From an uncultured cyanobacterium (GTDB lineage: Bacteria > Cyanobacteriota > Cyanobacteriia > Pseudanabaenales > Pseudanabaenaceae), in the NCBI GenBank assembly GCA_963703315.1, contig OY969811.1, positions 3,648,001 to 3,712,000 on the forward strand: a DNA stretch of 64,000 nucleotides, given 5' to 3'. The translations under genes and the position numbers were made by a program. Shown here in pieces: positions 15,701 to 26,676 of the stretch. Every line of letters begins with the position of its first letter. The first letter of the stretch is position 1. The notes beneath the pieces were generated by a model that worked only from the letters and a program-made list of their open reading frames with translations, searched no databases and was not told the origin of the DNA.

Positions 15701-18172
15701 ATCCCCCTGCATCTCAGTCAGCAAATCATGTAAATCCTTCTCTAACTCCACACGAGTCTTTAACGGACGAGTCCCCCTCTCATCGGTCAACATAAACAGC
15801 AAAAACTTAGCCAATCGTTCATTCTCCTCCCCACAATCCACAATCACATCATTCAAATAGCGCTCCACCAATATCGCCTTCGGATTCGCACCCAACAGGC
15901 GATATTGCTCCAAAGTCTTAATTCCCTCCTGCTGTAACTGCGCTCCCACCACCTGAAGCTCAATCGGACGCACTTCACCTAGCTCATCCTTAAGATCATC
16001 AGCGATCGCCCCAATCAACTCAGGCTCCAAATAAAATCGCGATTTCTGAGTAAGGGTCTGAATCAGCGACTTAGCCGCCTTGACCTTGAGGTTCCCCACC
16101 CGATATAACACATTCTTACTGAGAATATCTTGATCGATCGCTGCCATGCTTTCAATCTGATTGCACTCCAGCAAATAATGCAAATAGTCCTCCCGCAACG
16201 ACAAAACTACCTTCAGCGAAGATAGATTTTGCGAATCATTTAGCAAACTTCCAATAAACTCAAAAAAGCGGCGACGCTCAGTAGGTTGATTGTAATAAAC
16301 AAAAAAGAACTCCTCAAACTGATCGAAAATTAAAACTAAACGCAAGTTTTGTGATTCTTTTTCCCTAAGTTTAGAGATGATGCTCTCACCCCCAGCCGCT
16401 CTCCCAGAGGGCGAGGGGAGTAAAGAGTCTTGCTCCCCCTCTCCCAATGGGAGAGGGGGCTGGGGGGTGAGGGTCTTGATCGCCTTCTCCAACTCCTCTT
16501 CCCAATTCGTATATACCCGCAAGGTGATCGCACAAACATCCCTACCCTCAAACGATGTATGCTCCAACTGCGGAATTAATCCTGCATTCACCAACGAACT
16601 CTTACCCACACCAGACTTGCCATACAACACAATCAACTTATAACTCGGCTTAGCAATGCGCGTAATCAACTCATCAAGATCCTGCTTGCGTCCCGAAGCC
16701 TCAATTTCAGTTGCCACATCAGTTTGCGATTTACCGACCGACTTCTTGCCCTGCAAGCGACCCGCTCCGATAAAGGCACGATAGCCATACTGTTGCTCGA
16801 TCGCATACTGTTCCTGCTTAGTGACATAGGCTTCGAGATATTGCTTTTGTGTGGTGTAAAGCGATCGCAATTCCTGCAAAACCGCAATATAAACCTGTGG
16901 ATGTCCCGTATCTCCTAACTCTTTGGCTTCAAGAAGCAATCGCAATCCCTCTTGAGCATTTCCAAGATTAATTTCTGCTTGAGCAAGCATTACTAAATAT
17001 AAATTACGCCATTCTTGATTGGTTTCTGGAGCTTGACTCAAAAATGAAATAGCAAGATTTGATTCAGTTCTAGCAACTTCCCATTGTTGCTTTTGAATTG
17101 CAATTTCGGCTAAATATCGATGATCTAAGACAAGATAATGTGGATTTTGTAACTCTTGATGTAAAGGTACTGCTTTTTGGATAATTGCCTCAATCGCTTC
17201 CCAATCAGACATTCGCTTCGCAATCACAACCAGACGCATAATTACATTTGCCATGAGATCGCGGCGATGTGCTTTTTCAAAAATATCCATCGCATTTTGA
17301 AAAGCCGATCGCGCTACTTCCCAATTAGGAGTTCGATATTTTTCAGCATCAGTAATTTGATAATTTAATTGTCCTATTTGATTGTGCAACAGACCACTAC
17401 GTTCGAGATCACCAAGCTGCTGCCAATACTCTAAACTTGCTTGCAAATATTGCAGAGCCTTTTCAGGTGAATTATTGGGCGGTAATGTGTCTAAACCGCG
17501 AATAAAGTTAAGATTAGCTTGCAATTTTGGCTCAAGATTCAAACCGCGATCGCCTAAATCCTTGAGCGCAGTCTCCAACTCTGAACATAGAATCGAACCA
17601 AGTTGATGAATTTGTCCTAACTTTTTGAAAAATGGAACCTCACTAGGCGCAAGTACATGACTAAATAGAGCTTCACTGCCATCATGGAGAGAAGTAAGTA
17701 ACTCATCAGTGTCAATGGAAAACTCCAGCGTCGTCGTCCAACTCTCAAAGTCAGGTGCAGTGCGGATAATTCGTTTATGAGTACTATCCGAAATCCACCA
17801 CACAATTGGATAGGGGCAGTGATTGCGAAACATCTCGCGATTGAGATTGATATCCAAAAGTGCAGCGTGCAGATCCTCTAGCTCTTCTAGTCCTACTATC
17901 GACAATGCTGCGGGAGTCTCTGACGATACTTGGGAAATTATGTAGTTATATAAATCTTTTTGCGATCGCGGTAACTTTATTTCACGGATTGGTTGTGGAT
18001 GGATTTCTTTGAGACGAATAATGAGGCGATCGCGCAAATTCTGATAATTACAACGTGCTAATAGTAGCTTAAACTCACCCTCATACAAATCTAGAGCCGA
18101 CGAAAGCTCTTGCAAAGCGTCTTCATTCTCAGGTGAGATATTTGCCGAGGCGAAATTAGATACGTCGCTCAT
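12743..18172 (-). CDS. TPR-like + STAND (nSTAND1-type) NTPase + 14 WD40 repeats + C-terminal TPR protein
   Basis: Walker A GKSGVGKSS, Walker B LIFDQFEE, LQVVG, YQLVHDYL, coiled coil, one TM helix, 14 GH..WN repeats. Confidence 0.9.
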   Translation of the reverse strand: MSDVSNFASANISPENEDALQELSSALDLYEGEFKLLLARCNYQNLRDRLIIRLKEIHPQPIREIKLPRSQKDLYNYIISQVSSETPAALSIVGLEELEDLHAALLDINLNREMFRNHCPYPIVWWISDSTHKRIIRTAPDFESWTTTLEFSIDTDELLTSLHDGSEALFSHVLAPSEVPFFKKLGQIHQLGSILCSELETALKDLGDRGLNLEPKLQANLNFIRGLDTLPPNNSPEKALQYLQASLEYWQQLGDLERSGLLHNQIGQLNYQITDAEKYRTPNWEVARSAFQNAMDIFEKAHRRDLMANVIMRLVVIAKRMSDWEAIEAIIQKAVPLHQELQNPHYLVLDHRYLAEIAIQKQQWEVARTESNLAISFLSQAPETNQEWRNLYLVMLAQAEINLGNAQEGLRLLLEAKELGDTGHPQVYIAVLQELRSLYTTQKQYLEAYVTKQEQYAIEQQYGYRAFIGAGRLQGKKSVGKSQTDVATEIEASGRKQDLDELITRIAKPSYKLIVLYGKSGVGKSSLVNAGLIPQLEHTSFEGRDVCAITLRVYTNWEEELEKAIKTLTPQPPLPLGEGEQDSLLPSPSGRAAGGESIISKLREKESQNLRLVLIFDQFEEFFFVYYNQPTERRRFFEFIGSLLNDSQNLSSLKVVLSLREDYLHYLLECNQIESMAAIDQDILSKNVLYRVGNLKVKAAKSLIQTLTQKSRFYLEPELIGAIADDLKDELGEVRPIELQVVGAQLQQEGIKTLEQYRLLGANPKAILVERYLNDVIVDCGEENERLAKFLLFMLTDERGTRPLKTRVELEKDLHDLLTEMQGDTSVLDLVLEIFVRSGLVVLVPESPLDRYQLVHDYLAEFIRASQAPEMAKLQQELAETKETLRETVDRLSVAVKEEEAAKFRARGRSRLAVGVGIVASVMAVGAGIAGFMALRTSVDTQFVSDSYKMLSLLNGDLQLEALVEAVETGERLQKNKIVSPDTKIRVITSIQEVIYAMQEKNRLLGHNGIVTSIAFSPDGKTIASSSSDNTIKLWNLEGKELQTFKGHSAIVWSVAFSPDGKTIASGSGDKTIKLWNLEGKELQTFKGHSAIVWSVAFSPDGKTIASGSGDKTIKLWNLEGKELQTFKGHSDSINSLAFSPDGKTIASGSWDNTIKLWNLEGKELQTFKGLSINSLAFSPDGKVIATSGGNNTVKLWNLEGRELQIFKGQSNDIWRIAFSPDGKAIVTGDLNGVIKLWNLEGKELQIFKGHSSGVWGVAFSPNAKVIATGSFDRTVKLWNLEVKEIPSFRGHSSSVNSIVFSPDGMTIATVSYDRTVKLWNVEGKELQTFKGHSNSVNSVAFSLDGRTIASGSRDNTVKLWNLEGKELQTFKGHSRGINSVVFSPDGKTIASGSDDNTVKLWNVEGKELQTFKGHSSSVNSVAFSPDGRTIASGSDDNTIKLWNLEGKELQTFKTFKGHSSSVNSAAFSPDGKTIASSSSDNTTKLWNLEGKELQTFKGHSNSVNSVAFSPDGRTIASGSRDNTIKLWNLEGKELQTFKGHSRGINSVAFSPNGKTIATGSADKKLKLWSLDLDRQKGLGCYWLQDYLATNRDLRQKLATCRDPQILKAAAPALIAEARTKGMSGKPEIALSLFQEAKKLDSSISLDLQTEINPYFIPKGERLAKEGDIKAALVAYDEAIKRNPNIKISADSWNTLCWNGSLYNSASQVIFACNNTVILEPSNLIFRQNRTIAKVLAGDKNGAISEIEISLSKIYRENLEVILSIRERNYSEQYTYAEQKGWLDDLSQDKTPFTEEKLEEWRQEEKSMS
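13470..15156 (-). repeat. Tandem ~123-bp WD40-coding repeats
   Basis: Near-identical units; two adjacent units (~14780-15025) identical at DNA level. Confidence 0.92.
16383..16473. mobile_element. Small palindromic repeat inserted in-frame (cyanobacterial SDR5-like)
   Basis: CTCTCACCCCCAGCCGCTCTCCC...GGGAGAGGGGGCTGGGGGGTGAGGG; encodes TLTPQPPLPLGEGEQDSLLPSPSGRAAGGES. Confidence 0.75.
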
Positions 18173-20235: not shown

Positions 20236-20859
20236 ATGGTTCAGGCGATCGCGGCAAAGGATGTAACCATAAGAGAATTAAAGCAAAATTTTGGGCTGCA
20301 AATGTCTGAAGATCCTGCTTTTTTTACTGAGTGGTCAGAAAATCTTGTGGGCTTGAGTGGTGAAGATAAACATCTTTTGGATCGTGTGAAGTCTAATTTT
20401 CTGGAATTGATGGAAGATCCACCAATGTTAGAAAATACAGTAAAGATGGTTGTACTTGCACCATTATTGGATCTTGCTGGTTTCTATCACAAACCATTTC
20501 GGATCGAAACAGAAACAAGTGTCTCTTTAGAAATGCAGGATGAGGGGACGATAATTCGTGGTCGGATTGATGTATTGGTGTTAAAAAATCGGCTGTGGTT
20601 ATTAGTGATTGGATCAAAACGCAGTGATTTTGCAGTAACAAGGGCAATTCCGCAAGCGTTGGCTTATATGTTGAGTAATACGGAAACAGTGGAACCGACG
20701 TTTGGCATGATTACCAATGGGAATGAGTTTTTATTTTTGAAGTCTTTTCAACAAGAGTATGCAAATTCGCGGCTGTTTTCGCTGGTGAATCCCACCAATG
20801 AACTGTATGGTGTATTGCAGGTGCTAAAGCATTTAGGAGCAAAAATTAGCGGACTTTAA
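20236..20859 (+). CDS. Type I restriction HsdR N-terminal-like PD-(D/E)XK protein
   Basis: GRIDVLV...VIGSKR, IPQALAYM, GMITNG. Confidence 0.8.
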   Translation: MVQAIAAKDVTIRELKQNFGLQMSEDPAFFTEWSENLVGLSGEDKHLLDRVKSNFLELMEDPPMLENTVKMVVLAPLLDLAGFYHKPFRIETETSVSLEMQDEGTIIRGRIDVLVLKNRLWLLVIGSKRSDFAVTRAIPQALAYMLSNTETVEPTFGMITNGNEFLFLKSFQQEYANSRLFSLVNPTNELYGVLQVLKHLGAKISGL

Positions 20860-20969: not shown

Positions 20970-21224
20970 ATGGCACAAATAGAAAAAATTGTTGCTCAGC
21001 TAAAGAGGAGTCCTCAAAATGTCAACTTTACTGATTTAGTAAAAGTTTGTAATCATTATTTTGGAGAGCCTCGCCAGCAAGGAACAAGTCACTGTATCTA
21101 TAAAACACCTTGGCAAGGAGATCCTCGCGTTAACATTCAAGAAAAGAACGGAAAAGCAAAAGTTTATCAAGTTAAACAGGTTTTAGCGGCAATTGAAAAA
21201 TTTGAGGGAATGAAAGATGGTTAA
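20970..21224 (+). CDS. HicA-like toxin
   Basis: F.DL.KVC..YFGEPRQQGTSH, NIQ..NGKAKVYQVKQV. Confidence 0.85.
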   Translation: MAQIEKIVAQLKRSPQNVNFTDLVKVCNHYFGEPRQQGTSHCIYKTPWQGDPRVNIQEKNGKAKVYQVKQVLAAIEKFEGMKDG

Positions 21225-21543
21225 CTACGAACACTATAGCTACAAGCTTACTTGGTCAGTTGAAGATCAAGAATTTGCAGGATTATGTGCAGAGTTTCCA
21301 AGTCTGTCCTATCTCCATGAAGATCGTTCTGCGGCGCTAGAAGGTATTACAAACTTGATAAAAGATGTAGTAGCTGATATGGAAGCAAATGGAGAGAAAG
21401 TGCCAGAACCGATAGCAGAGAAAACTTACAGTGGTAAGCTTCAGATTCGGATTCCTCCCTCTCTTCATCGTAGGTTAGCGATGGAAGCCGCCGAAGAAAA
21501 TGTTAGTTTAAATCGTTATATGAGTCAGAAGCTTGCAGGTTGA
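21217..21543 (+). CDS. HicB-like antitoxin
   Basis: WS.EDQEF.GLCAEFPSLS, YSGKLQIRIPPSLHRRLA RHH domain. Confidence 0.88.
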   Translation: MVNYEHYSYKLTWSVEDQEFAGLCAEFPSLSYLHEDRSAALEGITNLIKDVVADMEANGEKVPEPIAEKTYSGKLQIRIPPSLHRRLAMEAAEENVSLNRYMSQKLAG

Positions 21544-21580: not shown

Positions 21581-21799
21581 TTATCGCTGGACAGATGTTT
21601 TAAAAAACATCGAAAAGTCCCTAGATGGCTTCTGTAATGGTTTCCTGCATCCCCGTTCTGAGTCGCCGTTGCAAGTGGTCGCGCCAATCAATGCAGAACC
21701 TACCGCTTTAATTCCATCTAATGCTGCGGTGATTCCTGCGGTGACAATTATTGCTAATGCTTTAAGAGTATTAGCAATAATTGCGATAGTTAATGACAC
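21581..21799 (-). CDS. Small hypothetical protein, hydrophobic N-terminal half
   Basis: 72-aa ATG ORF filling the intergenic gap; coding status uncertain. Confidence 0.35.
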   Translation of the reverse strand: MSLTIAIIANTLKALAIIVTAGITAALDGIKAVGSALIGATTCNGDSERGCRKPLQKPSRDFSMFFKTSVQR

Positions 21800-21920: not shown

Positions 21921-22805
21921 GTGAATCTCATGACAACATATCAACTTTTCCAAAAACTACTAATAGGTTCTGGAATAATCCTGTTAACACTATACATAGG
22001 CGCTTGTATATTTCTGTTTCTACGACAGAGACAACTAATTTTTAAACCGACCTATAACATTCTAGAAACACCTTTAAAATATAATCTTAAATATGAAGAG
22101 GTTTGGATTCCTCTTAAGGATAGGGATAATTTACAAGATAAATTACATGGGTGGTTTCTTCCATCCGAAAAAGATAATCTAGAATTAGGAACTATCTTAT
22201 ATCTTCATGGATCTGGTACAAATATTAGCAACTCTATTTATCTCCGAGATGTTGTGCAACTCAGAAAAATAGGATTTTCTGTCTTTATATTTGATTATCG
22301 AGGTTATGGTCAAAGTGTGGGAGATTTTCCGTCTGAACTGAGTGTTTATGAGGATGCTGAGACCGCTTTAAGATATTTAATCGAAAAAAGAGAAATTCCT
22401 CGCACAAAGATTTATTTGTTTGGTGTTTCATTGGGAGGAGCAGTTGCGATTGATTTAGCTATTAAAGAGAAAGGCATAGGAGGTTTGATTGTAGTCAGTT
22501 CTTTCACTTCTATGTTGGAAGAAATACTTTATAGAGGTTATAGGATGTTCCCAATTGAACTAATTCTAAACCAAAAGTTTGACTCTATTAATAAGATTGC
22601 ATCATTGACAACACCTATTTTAATTATTCATGGAACTTCTGACAAATCTAATCCAGCTAGTATGAGTCAAAAACTCTACAATGCAGCTCCTAATCGCAAG
22701 CAACTTCTCTTAATTCCAGATTTTGGACATGACAATATATCAGATATGATTGCAAGCACTCAGTTTAGAGATGGAATAAATAAATACATCAATGAAGCTA
22801 AATAA
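21921..22805 (+). CDS. Alpha/beta hydrolase (ABHD12/Bem46-like) with N-terminal TM helix
   Basis: LYLHG, DYRGYG, GVSLGG nucleophile, HGTSD, GHD. Confidence 0.88.
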   Translation: MNLMTTYQLFQKLLIGSGIILLTLYIGACIFLFLRQRQLIFKPTYNILETPLKYNLKYEEVWIPLKDRDNLQDKLHGWFLPSEKDNLELGTILYLHGSGTNISNSIYLRDVVQLRKIGFSVFIFDYRGYGQSVGDFPSELSVYEDAETALRYLIEKREIPRTKIYLFGVSLGGAVAIDLAIKEKGIGGLIVVSSFTSMLEEILYRGYRMFPIELILNQKFDSINKIASLTTPILIIHGTSDKSNPASMSQKLYNAAPNRKQLLLIPDFGHDNISDMIASTQFRDGINKYINEAK

Positions 22806-22870
22806 TTCATGCTGGTATAAGTCTTAAAAAAGCTGTACCATTCTATATTTTGTGAGTAGTGGCTAACTTA

Positions 22871-22937
22871 GTGATCGCATTCTGGAGTGATTGATTGGGC
22901 GATCGCGTTTTTTGTGAATGATTGGTGAGGTGATCTG
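22871..22937. repeat. HIP1-anchored tandem repeat block A
   Basis: HIP1-like sites at 22871, 22899, 22930 joined by G/T-rich linkers. Confidence 0.75.
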
Positions 22938-22940
22938 ACT

Positions 22941-23198
22941 CTAATAAATTTCCCTGCGATGCCCTACCCTAGCAATGAAGATCAACTGATTTTCTATATC
23001 AAATTCATAAATGACTCGATAATCTCCTACTCTCAACTTATAAAATCCAGACCACTGACCAGTCAATGGTAGTGGAGAAATCTTTTCAAAATTAATGCTT
23101 AACCATTGGATTTTCTTGAGAATCCGTACTCGCGTATCCTGAGAAATTTTATCTAAATCATCTATAGACTCTAGTTCAAAACTTACTGAATAAGCCAT
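22941..23198 (-). CDS. RelE/ParE-family toxin
   Basis: PLTG, YKLRVGDYRVIY, VGHRREIY. Confidence 0.92.
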   Translation of the reverse strand: MAYSVSFELESIDDLDKISQDTRVRILKKIQWLSINFEKISPLPLTGQWSGFYKLRVGDYRVIYEFDIENQLIFIARVGHRREIY

Positions 23199-23414
23199 TT
23201 ATTGATCTATTCCATATCTTTTGTATACTTCTGATGCTGGAATAGTAGATCTTCCCTCCACCCGTTTTTTTCGTATGTTTAGCAAACTTTGCATGAATAA
23301 TTCTTTGATTTCTTTTCCCTGATCAGGATCGCCAAAGTATTCATCCAAACGTTCATCCACAGTATTACGGATTAAAGTTTGTAGTTGCTCTACAGTCAAG
23401 TCTTTTACTTGCAT
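23199..23414 (-). CDS. Putative antitoxin
   Basis: MQVKDLTVEQL..., abuts RelE start. Confidence 0.8.
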   Translation of the reverse strand: MQVKDLTVEQLQTLIRNTVDERLDEYFGDPDQGKEIKELFMQSLLNIRKKRVEGRSTIPASEVYKRYGIDQ

Positions 23415-23476
23415 AGTTTCTACTAACGATGAAATATATGGGTGATTATAGCAATTTTTAGATCCTGAATAGGCAG

Positions 23477-23593
23477 GGGATCGCGTTTTGTGTTAATTGA
23501 TTGGGCGATCGTGTTTTGGTGAGTGGTTGGGCGATTGTGCTTTTTGATGGGATGATTGGGCGATCGCGTTTTGGGCGAGGGTTGGGCGATCGC
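23477..23593. repeat. HIP1-anchored tandem repeat block B
   Basis: HIP1-like sites at 23477, 23505, 23531, 23560, 23586; unit ~GCGATCGCGTTTTGGTGAGTGGTTGG. Confidence 0.88.
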
Positions 23594-23596
23594 TAT

Positions 23597-23884
23597 TTAA
23601 TAAACCTCATCATGACTCCCAATATCAACCAAAAAAATCACCATCTCCAACAACTCTTCATCTTCAGAAAATCTAAAAACAATCCTACAATCATAAGCAA
23701 CAGAACAAGACCATAATCCAGCTAAATTTCCTCCCAACTTATGAGACTTTAATGAAGGCGTAAACGGATCATCTCCCAACAGCCTTAAAGCTTTTACAAT
23801 TAGCTCAGTTAATTGTGGATTTTTCTTTGTAATTTTTTTGAAAGAGCGTTTAAATCCGTTACTCCAAACAACTTGCATCATCAT
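23597..23884 (-). CDS. YafQ/RelE-family toxin
   Basis: FKRSFKK, LKSHKL.G.LAGLWSCSV.YDCRIVF, IGSHDEVY. Confidence 0.9.
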   Translation of the reverse strand: MMMQVVWSNGFKRSFKKITKKNPQLTELIVKALRLLGDDPFTPSLKSHKLGGNLAGLWSCSVAYDCRIVFRFSEDEELLEMVIFLVDIGSHDEVY

Positions 23885-24089
23885 CCCCTAATAAATCAGC
23901 AATCAAATCATCAACACTTCCTCTTTTTGCTGTTCCATCTTTAAATGATTTCATCACCTCCTCAGAATTAGCCAAAATCTCCTGCCGCCGACTCTCAATA
24001 CGTCGCTTACGGATTAGCTCAAACAAATAATCCTGATCTTCTATTGATAAACCCTCAATAGAATCAATGATTTGCTGAAAGATCATCAT
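23859..24089 (-). CDS. Putative antitoxin
   Basis: FQQIIDSIEGLSIEDQ..., GSVDDLIADL; overlaps toxin. Confidence 0.8.
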   Translation of the reverse strand: MMIFQQIIDSIEGLSIEDQDYLFELIRKRRIESRRQEILANSEEVMKSFKDGTAKRGSVDDLIADLLGDDDASCLE

Positions 24090-24175
24090 AAGACTTCCTT
24101 AACTATTACAAAATTTCTTAACAACTATCTTCTGTACATTTCTAATTCTAACTCATTAACATTGAACGACTCTAG

Positions 24176-24210
24176 GCGATCGCGTTTTTGGTGAGTGGTT
24201 GGGCGATCGC
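24176..24210. repeat. HIP1-anchored repeat block C
   Basis: GCGATCGCGTTTTTGGTGAGTGGTTGGGCGATCGC. Confidence 0.88.
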
Positions 24211-24212
24211 CT

Positions 24213-24357
24213 TTAAGGGAAAAACTTGTAAATATCTTTACGGTGCAAAAACCTTACAAAAATTACTTCATTTTCAAAAATTTCTATCCCTACAAAGATT
24301 ACGATCCTTGACTAACTTCAAGTCCTTCTCAAATCTAGACTCAACCCTAACATTCAT
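24213..24357 (-). pseudogene. RelE-family toxin with internal deletion and frameshift
   Basis: MNVRVESRFEKDLKLVKDRNL joined out of frame to VGIEIFENEVIFVRFLHRKDIYKFFP*; ATGA overlap with antitoxin stop. Confidence 0.82.
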
Positions 24358-24581
24358 GCAACATTACCATCTAGAAGCGCAAAGATATTATCTTCAGGAA
24401 CAAATTCATTTTTTCTACCCTCAGCGATCGCATTTCCCAAACCAAACTCTTCTAAAGCATCTTGAAATATTTCCGCAAAAAGCTCCTTTCTAGTCTTAAT
24501 CAAATCAATTAAGATTTCAGTGAGCATTTCTCTTGTCTTCTCATCGTTAAGGAGTATTTGAATATTCAAACTCTCATTCAT
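24354..24581 (-). CDS. Putative antitoxin
   Basis: EIFQDALEEFGLGNAIAEGRKNEFV; coupled to RelE remnant. Confidence 0.8.
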   Translation of the reverse strand: MNESLNIQILLNDEKTREMLTEILIDLIKTRKELFAEIFQDALEEFGLGNAIAEGRKNEFVPEDNIFALLDGNVA

Positions 24582-24628
24582 AATCCAAGTTTATATAATT
24601 CTAGCTTAATAACATCAAACAGCTTTTG

Positions 24629-24718
24629 GCGATCGCGTTTTTGTGGTGATTGATTGGGCGATCATGTTTTGGTGAGTGGTTGGGCGATCGCGTTTTGGGT
24701 GATTGCTTGGGCGATCGC
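24629..24718. repeat. HIP1-anchored tandem repeat block D
   Basis: HIP1-like sites at 24629, 24658, 24684, 24711. Confidence 0.88.
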
Positions 24719-24767
24719 ACTTTGCATTTATATACAATTACATCTGATAATTACTGAGTTTAGAAAA

Positions 24768-24798
24768 TAAAAAAGCCACACAAAGTGCGGCTTTTTTA
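24768..24798 (-). terminator. ftsH terminator hairpin
   Basis: TAAAAAAGCCACAC-AAA-GTGCGGCTTTTTTA. Confidence 0.65.
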
Positions 24799-24813
24799 TA
24801 TGTATTGAAAATA

Positions 24814-26676
24814 CTATGCTTGAACTTCAGCAGGTTTAACTTGAGCTAGCAAACCAGTCAAGAATTCACCTTCAATCACTTCTGTTTCTAAAAGCTTCTC
24901 AGAGATGGACTCTAGCAGATCACGATTCGCATTAAGAATTGCTAGCGCCTTCGCATGGGCATTCTCAACGATGGTTTTGATTTCCTTGTCGATCGCCTCT
25001 GAAGTGGCAGGACTGACATTGCGAGCCATCTCCATCCCACCGAGGAATTGATTTTGTTGCTTTTGGTAGGCAAGAGGTCCCAAAACTTCGCTCATACCGT
25101 AGCTAGTCACCATCTTATCGGCGAGATCAGTAGCGCGTTGGAGGTCATTGGATGCACCAGTAGTAATGCTACCAAAGATGATTTCTTCTGCCGATCGCCC
25201 ACCGAGGAGAGTCGCAATTTGGGCTTCGATTTCTTCTTTGCTTAATAGGAAGCGATCTTCCGTTGGCAGTTGCAAGGTGTAGCCGAGAGCCGCCATACCG
25301 CGAGGCACGATCGAGATCTTCTCGACTTTACCGCTACTGGAGTTAAGCGCTCCTACTAGAGCATGACCAACTTCGTGATAGGCGACAATGCGCTTCTCAT
25401 TCTCATTGAGAACACGACTCTTCTTTTCTAGACCCGCAACTACACGTTCGACGGCTTCAGCGAAGTCTTCAAGTAGAACAGTTTCACGTCCAGCACGGGC
25501 AGCAAGTAATGCGGCTTCATTGACGAGGTTAGCGAGGTCAGCACCCGCAAAACCCGATGTGCGAGTAGCGATCGTTTCTAGGTCAACACTCTTGTCGAGA
25601 GTGACTTTTGCAGCGTGGATTTTGAGAATTGCTAAGCGTCCACTCTTGTCAGGGCGATCGACTAATACTTGGCGATCGAAACGACCTGGACGTAACAATG
25701 CTTGGTCAAGGGTTTCAGGTCGGTTAGTTGCAGCGAGAACAATTACTGTCGTTCCATCAACGCCGAATCCATCCATTTCGGTCAGCAATTGGTTGAGAGT
25801 TTGTTCGCGTTCATCGTTTCCGCCGTACATACCGCCACTAGAACGCGCCTTACCGATCGCATCAAGTTCATCGATAAAGATAATGCAAGGGGATTGTTTC
25901 TTGGCTTGCTCAAACAAATCACGTACTCGCGAAGAACCAACACCGACGAAGAGTTCTACGAATTCCGAACCAGAGATACTGAAGAAGGGAACACCTGCTT
26001 CACCAGCGACAGCTTTGGCAAGCAGAGTTTTACCTGTTCCGGGAGGACCAACTAGCAATACACCTTTAGGAATCTTTGCGCCGATCTTGGTGTATTTCTC
26101 AGGAGTCTTGAGGAACTGCACAATTTCTTGAAGTTCTTGCTTAGCTTCATCGACACCAGCGACATCGACAAACATGGTTTTGGTGGATTCGCCTTCAACA
26201 TAGACTTTTGCCTTGCTCTTACCAATCTGTAAGCCACCAGGAGCGCCGCCGCCACCGTTACGGCTGAAGAGTTGGAAGATACCGACAAAAATTAATGGGG
26301 GAATGACCCAGCTCAGTAATGTGCCGAACCAGCCCGATTTCTGTACAGGTGCTGCTGCAAATTCGACCCCACTCTTTTCGAGGCGTTCAGGGAGATTTAA
26401 GTCGAAGATTGGAGTGGTTGAAATCACATCACCCGCGATTTCAGGAGTGACACCCTTTAACTGATAGGTGATCTGGTCTTGACCAATGTATACCCTTGCT
26501 ACATGACCTTCTTCGATTTCATGGACAAATAGGCTATAGGGAACTCGTGCCACTGGTGGGGCAAATAGATTTGGTAAAAAGATATTTATTATGAGCAATC
26601 CTGCGCCGATCAGCAGGAGGACATTGCCAATCAGTCTTGCACGCGATCGCTTGGGATCTTCTTTTTTTACAGCCAT
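24814..26676 (-). CDS. ftsH: ATP-dependent zinc metalloprotease FtsH (FtsH4-type N-terminus)
   Basis: [33 protein letters not shown] and TTPIFDL.LP N-terminal motifs. Confidence 0.97.

Follow-up and report, generated by a model that had tools for sequence, protein, structure and literature searches.

The DNA analysed here, a 64,000-nucleotide stretch of contig OY969811.1 (assembly GCA_963703315.1, positions 3,648,001 to 3,712,000; the window), comes from an uncultured cyanobacterium of the Pseudanabaenaceae whose genome, G000 below, is a single contig of 4.57 Mb and 99.67% complete. Between positions 22871 and 24718 it carries an array in which four blocks of tandem repeats, built on the palindromic octamer HIP1 (highly iterated palindrome 1), alternate with three gene cassettes of the toxin–antitoxin (TA) type (Table 1). 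We define a cassette as a gene or TA pair together with its own upstream region, with a HIP1-like octamer at each end. Other genomes carry G numbers and extracted loci L numbers; f19 and f20 are families in the phylum set.

An earlier note on this DNA had counted 3, 5, 2 and 4 HIP1-like sites in the four blocks, and both this count and a period of 26-31 bp were confirmed. The repeat unit consists of HIP1 and a C-free, G/T-rich spacer of about 19 nt, here in the form TTGG-HIP1-GTTTT. Units of the subtype found in the window measure 22-34 bp (mode 27), and 181 of 202 spacers are distinct. On one strand these 202 spacers contain 46% T, 41% G and 1.1% C with variable run lengths, and spacer likeness is 0.72-0.78 compared with 0.59 when shuffled. 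TGG, GTG and GGT are enriched 4.8-7-fold in the spacers. HIP1 is perfect in only 135 of the 306 sites of this subtype and terminal sites are often degenerate, such as site 22930, GTGATCTG, which has three mismatches to HIP1. The octamer is also asymmetric on the G-rich strand, its last C being replaced by T in 109 of 306 sites and its first G altered in only 11. Folding of the blocks gave only HIP1-HIP1 stems (6-10 bp), alike on both strands; neighbouring HIP1 pairs form an 8-10-bp stem of about -11 kcal/mol on either strand. A pattern of three sites with C-free spacers occurs at 8 places in G000 and at none in the reversed control, and is therefore not due to chance. Contigs of run X1 reproduced the window region with no differences or gaps in pieces 4-7, which excludes an assembly slip; X1 is probably the source sample, so this agreement is not independent support. 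One contig of run X4 has one additional unit in block 3. An Rfam search returned two chance-level matches, both over the hairpin downstream of ftsH and none on a block, and no CRISPR match. To the right of the array, homology with relatives picks up again at about 24760-24860.

The cassettes had been read as three antitoxin/RelE-family pairs. Cassettes 1 and 2 are intact, but toxin 3 is a frameshifted pseudogene that has lost 122 bp at 24293/24294 relative to intact relatives. The ends of this deletion carry no HIP1 and no microhomology and lie away from any HIP1, and a contig of run X1 crosses the site without a gap. Antitoxins 1 and 2 gave no significant match to Pfam or NCBIfam profiles. 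Judged by their gene order, with the antitoxin first in a two-gene operon, and by the toxin-family matches, cassettes 1 and 2 fit predicted type II TA systems of the RelE/ParE superfamily. The toxin stops lie 3, 3 and 2 nt from a HIP1-like site, as had been noted. Across G000, a stop lies at most 10 nt from HIP1 in 6 of 152 TA genes versus 69 of 3,525 other genes. TA stops are thus only marginally nearer to HIP1, and a gap of 2-3 nt characterises certain cassettes without holding in general. As to the cassettes having their own promoters, an extended -10 box in cassette 1 and TAGAAT boxes before antitoxins 2 and 3 stand, but no full -35/-10 pair was seen on the minus strand. The TATAGC/TTATA stretch at the box of cassette 1 is kept in most homologues. 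A consensus promoter scan of the region gave four sites, all on the plus strand, versus 7.0 in shuffles.

Table 1. Array features and surrounding features, in window coordinates
Feature	Position	Strand	Details
HIP1 repeat block 1	22871..22937	+	Sites 22871, 22899, 22930; G/T-rich strand is +; last site degenerate
Cassette 1 toxin, RelE/ParE family, 85 aa	22941..23198	-	PF05016, E 4e-12; TIGR02385
Cassette 1 putative antitoxin, 71 aa	23199..23414	-	Upstream of toxin; travels with toxin
Putative extended -10-like box TGCTATAAT	23445..23450	-	Inside cassette 1
HIP1 repeat block 2	23477..23593	+	Five sites: 23477, 23505, 23531, 23560, 23586
Cassette 2 toxin, YafQ/RelE family, 95 aa	23597..23884	-	PF15738, E 3e-11
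Cassette 2 putative antitoxin, 76 aa	23859..24089	-	Travels with toxin; TAGAAT box 24145-24150
HIP1 repeat block 3	24176..24210	+	Two sites: 24176, 24203
Cassette 3 toxin pseudogene, ParE family	24213..24357	-	In relatives intact, 88 aa, PF05016
Cassette 3 antitoxin, 75 aa	24354..24581	-	PF25734, E 6e-13; TAGAAT box 24598-24603
HIP1 repeat block 4	24629..24718	+	Four sites: 24629, 24658, 24684, 24711; right end of array
Hairpin downstream of ftsH	24767..24799	-	Outside array
Solo HsdR_N-type nuclease gene	20236..20859	+	PF04313; no repeat block here
hicA-like/hicB pair	20970..21543	+	HicB PF05534; single upstream HIP1 (20898) here
Degraded 3' remnant of GMC-oxidoreductase gene	21609..21770	+	blastn 86-90%, two pieces, to GMC 3' end
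Alpha/beta hydrolase gene	21921..22805	+	PF12146; variable first slot, from GMC end to first block

Arrays in this genome, its relatives and the phylum

HIP1 alone is unremarkable in G000 because the genome holds 8,231 perfect sites; what is distinctive is tandem HIP1 with C-free spacers. By a query-independent definition, G000 contains 53 intergenic blocks at 30 loci; 27 of these blocks have at least three sites, and 15 loci have such a block. Polarity is uniform in all 13 multi-block loci and could not be linked to replichores (weak GC skew). Using phmmer, we found a TA-like open reading frame (ORF) within 300 nt of 16 of the 27 blocks, versus 63 of 664 lone intergenic HIP1 sites, so that the repeats are linked to TA-gene boundaries and not scattered. 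The phmmer census undercounts, and Pfam labels were hence used for a fuller figure: 25 of the 27 blocks adjoin TA or TA-like genes. Recognised TA families or DUF433/DUF5615 account for 23 of them, and the other two adjoin the pairs DUF6883/DUF4926 and DUF4160/DUF2442, which we take to be TA-like. The families at these blocks are BrnTA, YoeB, ParE, HicAB, MazF, PIN, TacA-GNAT and DUF433/5615.

Several locus-specific spacer subtypes exist side by side in G000. Window spacers score 0.72 with the arrays of relatives at the GMC locus (see below), 0.57-0.64 with other G000 arrays and 0.59 when shuffled. A two-site block at about 976 kb in G000 likewise has a spacer subtype other than that of the window. 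One could imagine an imprecise reverse transcriptase, telomerase-like or of defence type, as the source of the spacers, in keeping with their 1.1% C, variable runs and almost complete lack of duplicates. G000 has no RVT_1 match and its subtypes are several and locus-specific, and the likelihood of this origin seems to us practically negligible. Higher-order periodicity was detected in two of 10 long blocks, with period 3 (0.73 vs 0.59) and period 2 (0.79 vs 0.53). The 3-unit periodicity is that of the block at G000:C1:1371740-1372234 (L073), with 16 sites, and the 2-unit periodicity that of the block at L031:7792, with 25. The earlier suggestion that consecutive units are empty slots or scars is thus partly right, but the periodic blocks point to tandem expansion.

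The region is matched by 43 of 47 other genomes of the genus, in which most arrays with the three window cassettes are found downstream of a gene for a GMC oxidoreductase that neighbours a cytochrome-oxidase operon. Among 28 GMC loci, 22 have blocks, five end at a contig edge and one has no block; nine of the 28 had been picked for window cassettes, and the 19 picked by GMC alone divide into 13 with blocks, five at an edge and one without. The proS gene has arrays at three of 22 other proS loci, whereas eight are empty and 11 have other neighbours; in the empty sites the proS hairpin lies 25-125 nt from the next gene, with no block. The idea that proS-ftsH forms a conserved frame is rejected, since in 14 relatives the stretch of up to 1.5 kb downstream of ftsH contained no skewed block. 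A 3' remnant of the GMC gene precedes the array in the window and, among the three filled proS loci, in L026 and L130; these arrays therefore appear to be copies of GMC-locus arrays that took part of the anchor along. An intact GMC-oxidoreductase gene was not found in G000. The proS gene at L026:14907-16985 (also in G011 and G016) encodes 692 aa, about 100 aa more than in most relatives, and has an internal insertion.

In nearly every genome, the first slot after GMC (L021-L109) holds a changing defence-like gene: HNH, AbiJ-like, type II restriction enzyme, PDC-S39, PDC-S54, PIN_8 or DUF4238. Fused PARIS AriAB lies at the proS locus of L027 (9323-11425). PADLOC matched 10 of 24 variable-slot proteins submitted, including one hsdR_N cassette gene, and many first-slot genes without a family are candidate new defence genes. 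In the window, the variable region begins at about 20236, left of the stretch first noted, and the hydrolase, hicAB and hsdR_N genes there belong to the same cassette pool. The HsdR_N-type gene is a block-bounded cassette in L021, L023, L024, L098, L100 and L108, as is the hicA-like/hicB pair in L093, L099 and L111; in L097 the hydrolase gene stands immediately after GMC. No Pfam family matches the hicA-like ORF. Recurrent cassette pairs include x12/x13 (L034:6406-6603 with L034:10097-10432) and x22 with DUF2283 (L029:9177-9434); x12, x13 and x22, which match neither Pfam nor NCBIfam, are candidate uncharacterised TA systems. Elsewhere in the window, positions 12743-18172 encode a WD40/TPR protein of 1,809 aa, whose gene includes 13.5 tandem copies of a 123-bp repeat (13494-15154).

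Comparison of the genomes shows modular boundaries. Cassette homologues (6, 7 and 10 copies) reach a column identity of 0.8-1.0 between the terminal HIP1-like sites; in the blocks it is for the most part 0.5-0.76, and outside them it falls further, so that homology breaks lie at HIP1 sites, as had been predicted. In related genomes of the genus, conservation over a whole module, measured between its HIP1 ends, is about 90%, and the modules stand in longer arrays that draw on a common pool. The spacers beside one given cassette vary between copies.

Cassette content, order and locus vary between genomes as well. We scored shuffling from genes in 28 arrays with 15 families and 87 copies, a set in which cassette 3 was missed in the window and in L111; an earlier order count from DNA clustering (18/22) was discarded because it merged families where a block had been missed. 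Of 41 family pairs that co-occur in at least two arrays, 23 were found in both orders, a result that deletion from a single ancestral array could not give. The order is 2-1-3 in G036 and 1-2-3 in the window, with the 2|1 junction of G036 collapsed to one site. Cassettes 1 and 3 stand in opposite order in G000 and G002, both single-contig genomes, which argues against an assembly artefact. Match coordinates in G035, G043 and G044 show permutation also for another pool of cassettes in G000 (the second pool, at 2.19 Mb), and one contig of run X3 reads hydrolase, block and then cassette 3, skipping 1 and 2 (88% likeness, 76 nt short side). Orientation to the G-rich strand is fixed in 87 of 87 copies, eight families running against it and seven with it. 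Blocks between cassettes contain 1-24 units, a wide variation in unit number, and tandem cassette duplicates occur in L028, L109 and L076. Among 29 loci with window-cassette homologues examined for spacer subtype, four had too few units to score, and 21 of the 25 scorable loci carry the window subtype (0.67-0.76 vs 0.57-0.61 to the second subtype).

These data also bear on another view of the repeats, as mere passengers or as elements acting in RNA (hairpins, insulators); they would expand by slippage next to TA genes at insertion hotspots, and the TA genes would move by unrelated means. Such elements would account for the stem formed by adjacent HIP1 pairs, for the variable unit number and for TA genes that are block-free. 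They leave unexplained the breakpoints at terminal HIP1, the orientation of 87/87 copies, the array-wide polarity and the one-site junction of G036. Moreover, genes read both strands of the blocks, which makes a strand-specific RNA signal unlikely, and the Rfam matches are chance-level and off the blocks. We regard this explanation as decidedly improbable.

The arrays extend beyond the genus. Of 301 genomes in the phylum set, 24 contained a strict three-site pattern (20 of 37 in f19, two of 18 in f20 and the two genomes of the genus), most other families having none, and the reversed control gave no match. In a named collection, the matches listed (80 of at least 140 stretches) fell in Pseudanabaena, Dolichospermum, Anabaena, Aphanizomenon, Sphaerospermopsis, Cronbergia, Tolypothrix, Calothrix, Nostoc, Coleofasciculus, Oscillatoria, Phormidium and Leptolyngbyaceae, and one of those listed was in Pseudonocardia. 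Matching blocks stand beside TA genes in Nostocales and other cyanobacteria, and at 20 of 27 loci outside the genus a Pfam TA gene lies within 1.5 kb of the match. G085 (f19) has a cassette-1 homologue with 78% identity over 72 aa and the same boundaries and orientation. As for a phage vehicle, viral contigs had no three-site pattern and the phage collection no match; plasmids gave three weak matches, to genes only. On balance, we view the window array as belonging to a wider family of gene-cassette arrays that have no integrase.

How the cassettes may be exchanged

The HIP1 blocks had been proposed as junctions of shuffled TA cassettes. Variable content and order, the breakpoints and the TA link uphold this proposal, but capture and excision were not observed. 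In the explanation that we favour as the probable one, polar degenerate HIP1 repeats are homology that travels with the cassettes and is used by the host's recombination and by natural transformation. Since all blocks of an array point in the same direction, any two of them form short direct repeats. We infer that the RecA/DprA machinery, fed by natural transformation, crosses over within blocks, helped by the reported recombination-enhancing effect of homologous and methylated HIP1, and that a shared cassette or conserved anchor gene can act as a second, longer homology arm. Such crossovers would insert, delete and duplicate cassettes, and duplication followed by deletion would permute their order with no need for free circles. 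The asymmetric spacer would fix orientation and favour exchange within the same spacer subtype. TA genes most likely dominate because block-flanked DNA would be prone to deletion and addictive modules would survive, possibly together with a role in phage defence; survival of addictive modules has been reported for integrons (10.1101/2022.08.03.502626).

HIP1 alone does not suffice as the junction: a palindromic octamer would permit inversions and offer thousands of sites, yet 87/87 copies keep one orientation. The fixed orientation, subtype fidelity, degenerate sites, periodic blocks and duplicates point instead to homology-guided exchange, and periodic blocks together with tandem cassette duplicates fit unequal crossover. 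G000 encodes RecA, DprA and ComEC, and candidate methylases comprise a Dam-like enzyme (candidate GATC) and three full-length C5 methylases. RecA filaments are described as most stable on TGG-rich DNA (PMC3763553), and homologous HIP1 sites as raising integration up to 7-fold in strain PCC 7002, and more than 100-fold if methylated (10.1101/2024.09.10.611283).

Several observations weigh against exchange by homology. The units are short and only about 72-78% identical. Such short, divergent units are a poor substrate for plain RecA recombination, and the explanation therefore has to suppose an enhancer or a long anchor in addition. The eight empty proS sites have no block, so new loci are not seeded from one block to another, and the same TA genes occur without blocks in other lineages (L036; L350-L355, L358, L359). 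Subtype fidelity is weak in the second pool, where 17 of 23 are nearer their own type, with differences of 0.00-0.07. The comparisons involve species-level genomes, many of them draft or metagenome-assembled, in which kin are not independent, and correlations of host with cassette identity were uninformative (5-9 genomes each; one of eight with p < 0.05). Contigs of four runs contained no recombination event, circle or within-population switch; contig joints that 'go back' had a short side of 31-41 nt and are explained by the repeat. In the RNA runs, a fraction of 0.05-0.07 of the words was present.

The precise ends of cassettes at HIP1 could also result from an unlinked site-specific enzyme, perhaps dependent on HIP1 methylation, that recombines polar G-HIP1-T sites via circles. 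Units would then be mini-elements like the short dispersed repeat SDR5 that regenerate their own target, and HIP1-to-HIP1 segments would be either 27-bp units or cassettes. Eight of 10 long blocks have no higher-order periodicity, which fits independent insertions, and the literature cites HIP1-linked site-specific recombination in PCC 7002 and SDR5 insertion into HIP1 (PMC4390886) as well as a precise HIP1-to-HIP1 excision in smtB (PMC13756078). Such an enzyme would face 8,231 perfect sites, yet blocks with at least three sites exist at only about 15 loci, the terminal sites are often degenerate and no candidate recurs beside arrays. We therefore consider it unlikely. A broader proposal, that a dedicated but unlinked host factor reading methylated HIP1 drives polar recombination, captures TA and defence genes between HIP1 sites and trades them across cyanobacterial orders by transformation, strikes us as doubtful. 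If true, HIP1 would lie at the centre of a phylum-level device that resembles an integron and is assembled from host parts.

The arrays also point to a means, independent of any integrase, by which TA and defence genes can be arranged in shuffled arrays; the genera concerned include common bloom-formers. The function of HIP1 has been open for three decades (PMC13756078); the arrays are native loci at which genes have repeatedly been gained, lost and reordered alongside repeats built on HIP1, and they make the recombination hypothesis testable. Since changing defence-like genes lie next to the anchor, the repeat pattern marks defence hotspots, and it may provide a modular insertion joint for cyanobacterial engineering.

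Recombinases and comparison with known systems

No recombinase recurs among 347 array-neighbourhood proteins scanned, and transposases beside arrays are sporadic and unrelated (L076, L142, L152). G000 has no serine resolvase match, and its single Y1 transposase and seven IS110 copies are remote from arrays. The IS110 copies (G000:C1 ~347.9k, 2426.7k, 2715-2717k, 3075-3077k, 3869k) have identical scores and include two back-to-back pairs. The only clear tyrosine recombinase found in G000 is a XerC-like protein of 507 aa with two integrase domains, encoded far from arrays at G000:C1:1754114-1755637 (L086:6115-7635). A 410-aa TetR-tyrosine-recombinase fusion (G000:C1:4367585-4368817; L072:9586-10818) is encoded 42 nt from a HIP1 block and divergently from a fatty-acid desaturase gene; its integrase domain looks degenerate. 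It was rejected as a cassette integrase, as it falls below the PF00589 cut-off and, judged by the catalytic Arg motif of tyrosine recombinases, apparently lacks the first catalytic Arg. Other arrays are flanked by genes of 398-422 aa that show no relationship to this fusion (12-23% identity).

The likeness to an integron that had been drawn for the array holds for function only, as the array has no attC boxes and G000 no IntI. The best TIGR02249 score in G000 was 32 bits against a cut-off of 265. The boxes of attC sites form a RYYYAAC...GTTRRRY pair, and no such pair was found on either strand of 22821-24760. The arrays might still be clusters of attC sites lacking integron integrases (CALINs), with atypical attC moved by the IntI of the genus: IntI exceeds the TIGR02249 cut-off in 23 of 48 genus genomes, and integrons are TA-rich (PMC8618304). 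At the 20 intI loci examined, no block with at least three sites adjoins intI, the nearest lying about 7 kb away (L333), and stems of the blocks are equal on both strands. Hairpins of real attC sites beside the intI of relatives, our positive control, measure 73-129 nt and differ from the blocks. Array-bearing G000, G034, G007, G008, G013 and G003 have no intI match, whereas G006 has intI and no GMC array. A CALIN origin is accordingly highly improbable, and action of IntI in trans was rejected, with intI loci lying apart from blocks and attC being different. L326, L327, L337, L341 and L343 are genuine integrons with attC arrays; the two-site HIP1 pairs of L337 and L341 sit in the body of a short ORF-less cassette, not in attC. 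In L337 this 217-bp cassette with its HIP1 pair is repeated at least eight times.

Other systems share single traits with the arrays. In pdif/dif modules, minimal mobile elements and homology-facilitated illegitimate recombination (HFIR), TA or defence modules are moved by host functions without a cargo recombinase, and variable genes lie between conserved anchors. Minimal mobile elements have no internal repeat joints. A pdif site is a fixed 28-bp XerC/XerD site (11-6-11), usually in alternating orientation; here the unit is 22-34 bp long, and the joints, all in direct orientation, are degenerate and differ in length. Compared with a CRISPR array, the conserved part is only 8 bp and the spacers are alike (0.72-0.78 vs 0.59 shuffled), and no cas family occurs among array neighbours. 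The cognate transposase or terminal inverted repeats of insertion sequences (IS), miniature inverted-repeat transposable elements and REP-RAYT (repetitive extragenic palindromes with their associated tyrosine transposases) are not found here. The literature searched held no account of HIP1 tandem blocks bounding TA cassettes, an earlier mention being possible in subscription papers outside the search; a Synechocystis TA survey has no occurrence of 'HIP'.

SDR5, likewise a short HIP1-tied repeat of cyanobacteria, is cited as a 21-nt element inserted between HIP1 bases 3 and 4 and confined to Nostocaceae (PMC4390886, PMC5861425, PMC13756078). By that description it differs from the present repeats, which are 26-31 nt long, tandem and degenerate, leave HIP1 whole, flank cassettes and abound in Pseudanabaena. 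Reports of HIP1-linked recombination, on smtB excision, plasmid recombination in PCC 7002 and enhanced transformation, share with our arrays the breakpoints at GCGATCGC and the tie to natural transformation and homology (PMC13756078; PMC4390886; 10.1101/2024.09.10.611283); as described, they concern single or engineered sites, whereas here HIP1 lies within polar tandem repeats that organise exchangeable arrays. Likeness is greatest to integrons and CALINs, which also reorder gene-sized modules, contain many TA pairs that bring a promoter of their own (PMC8618304), place stops at the junction and share cassettes across distant taxa. In contrast to these, no IntI, attI or attC is present here, the junction is a variable-length tandem block of degenerate units on both sides, each genome has many short arrays, and cassette families face either way. 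We conclude that this is a real, widespread cassette architecture, which works like an integron array while differing in defining traits from integrons, dif modules, SDR5, CRISPR arrays and IS elements.

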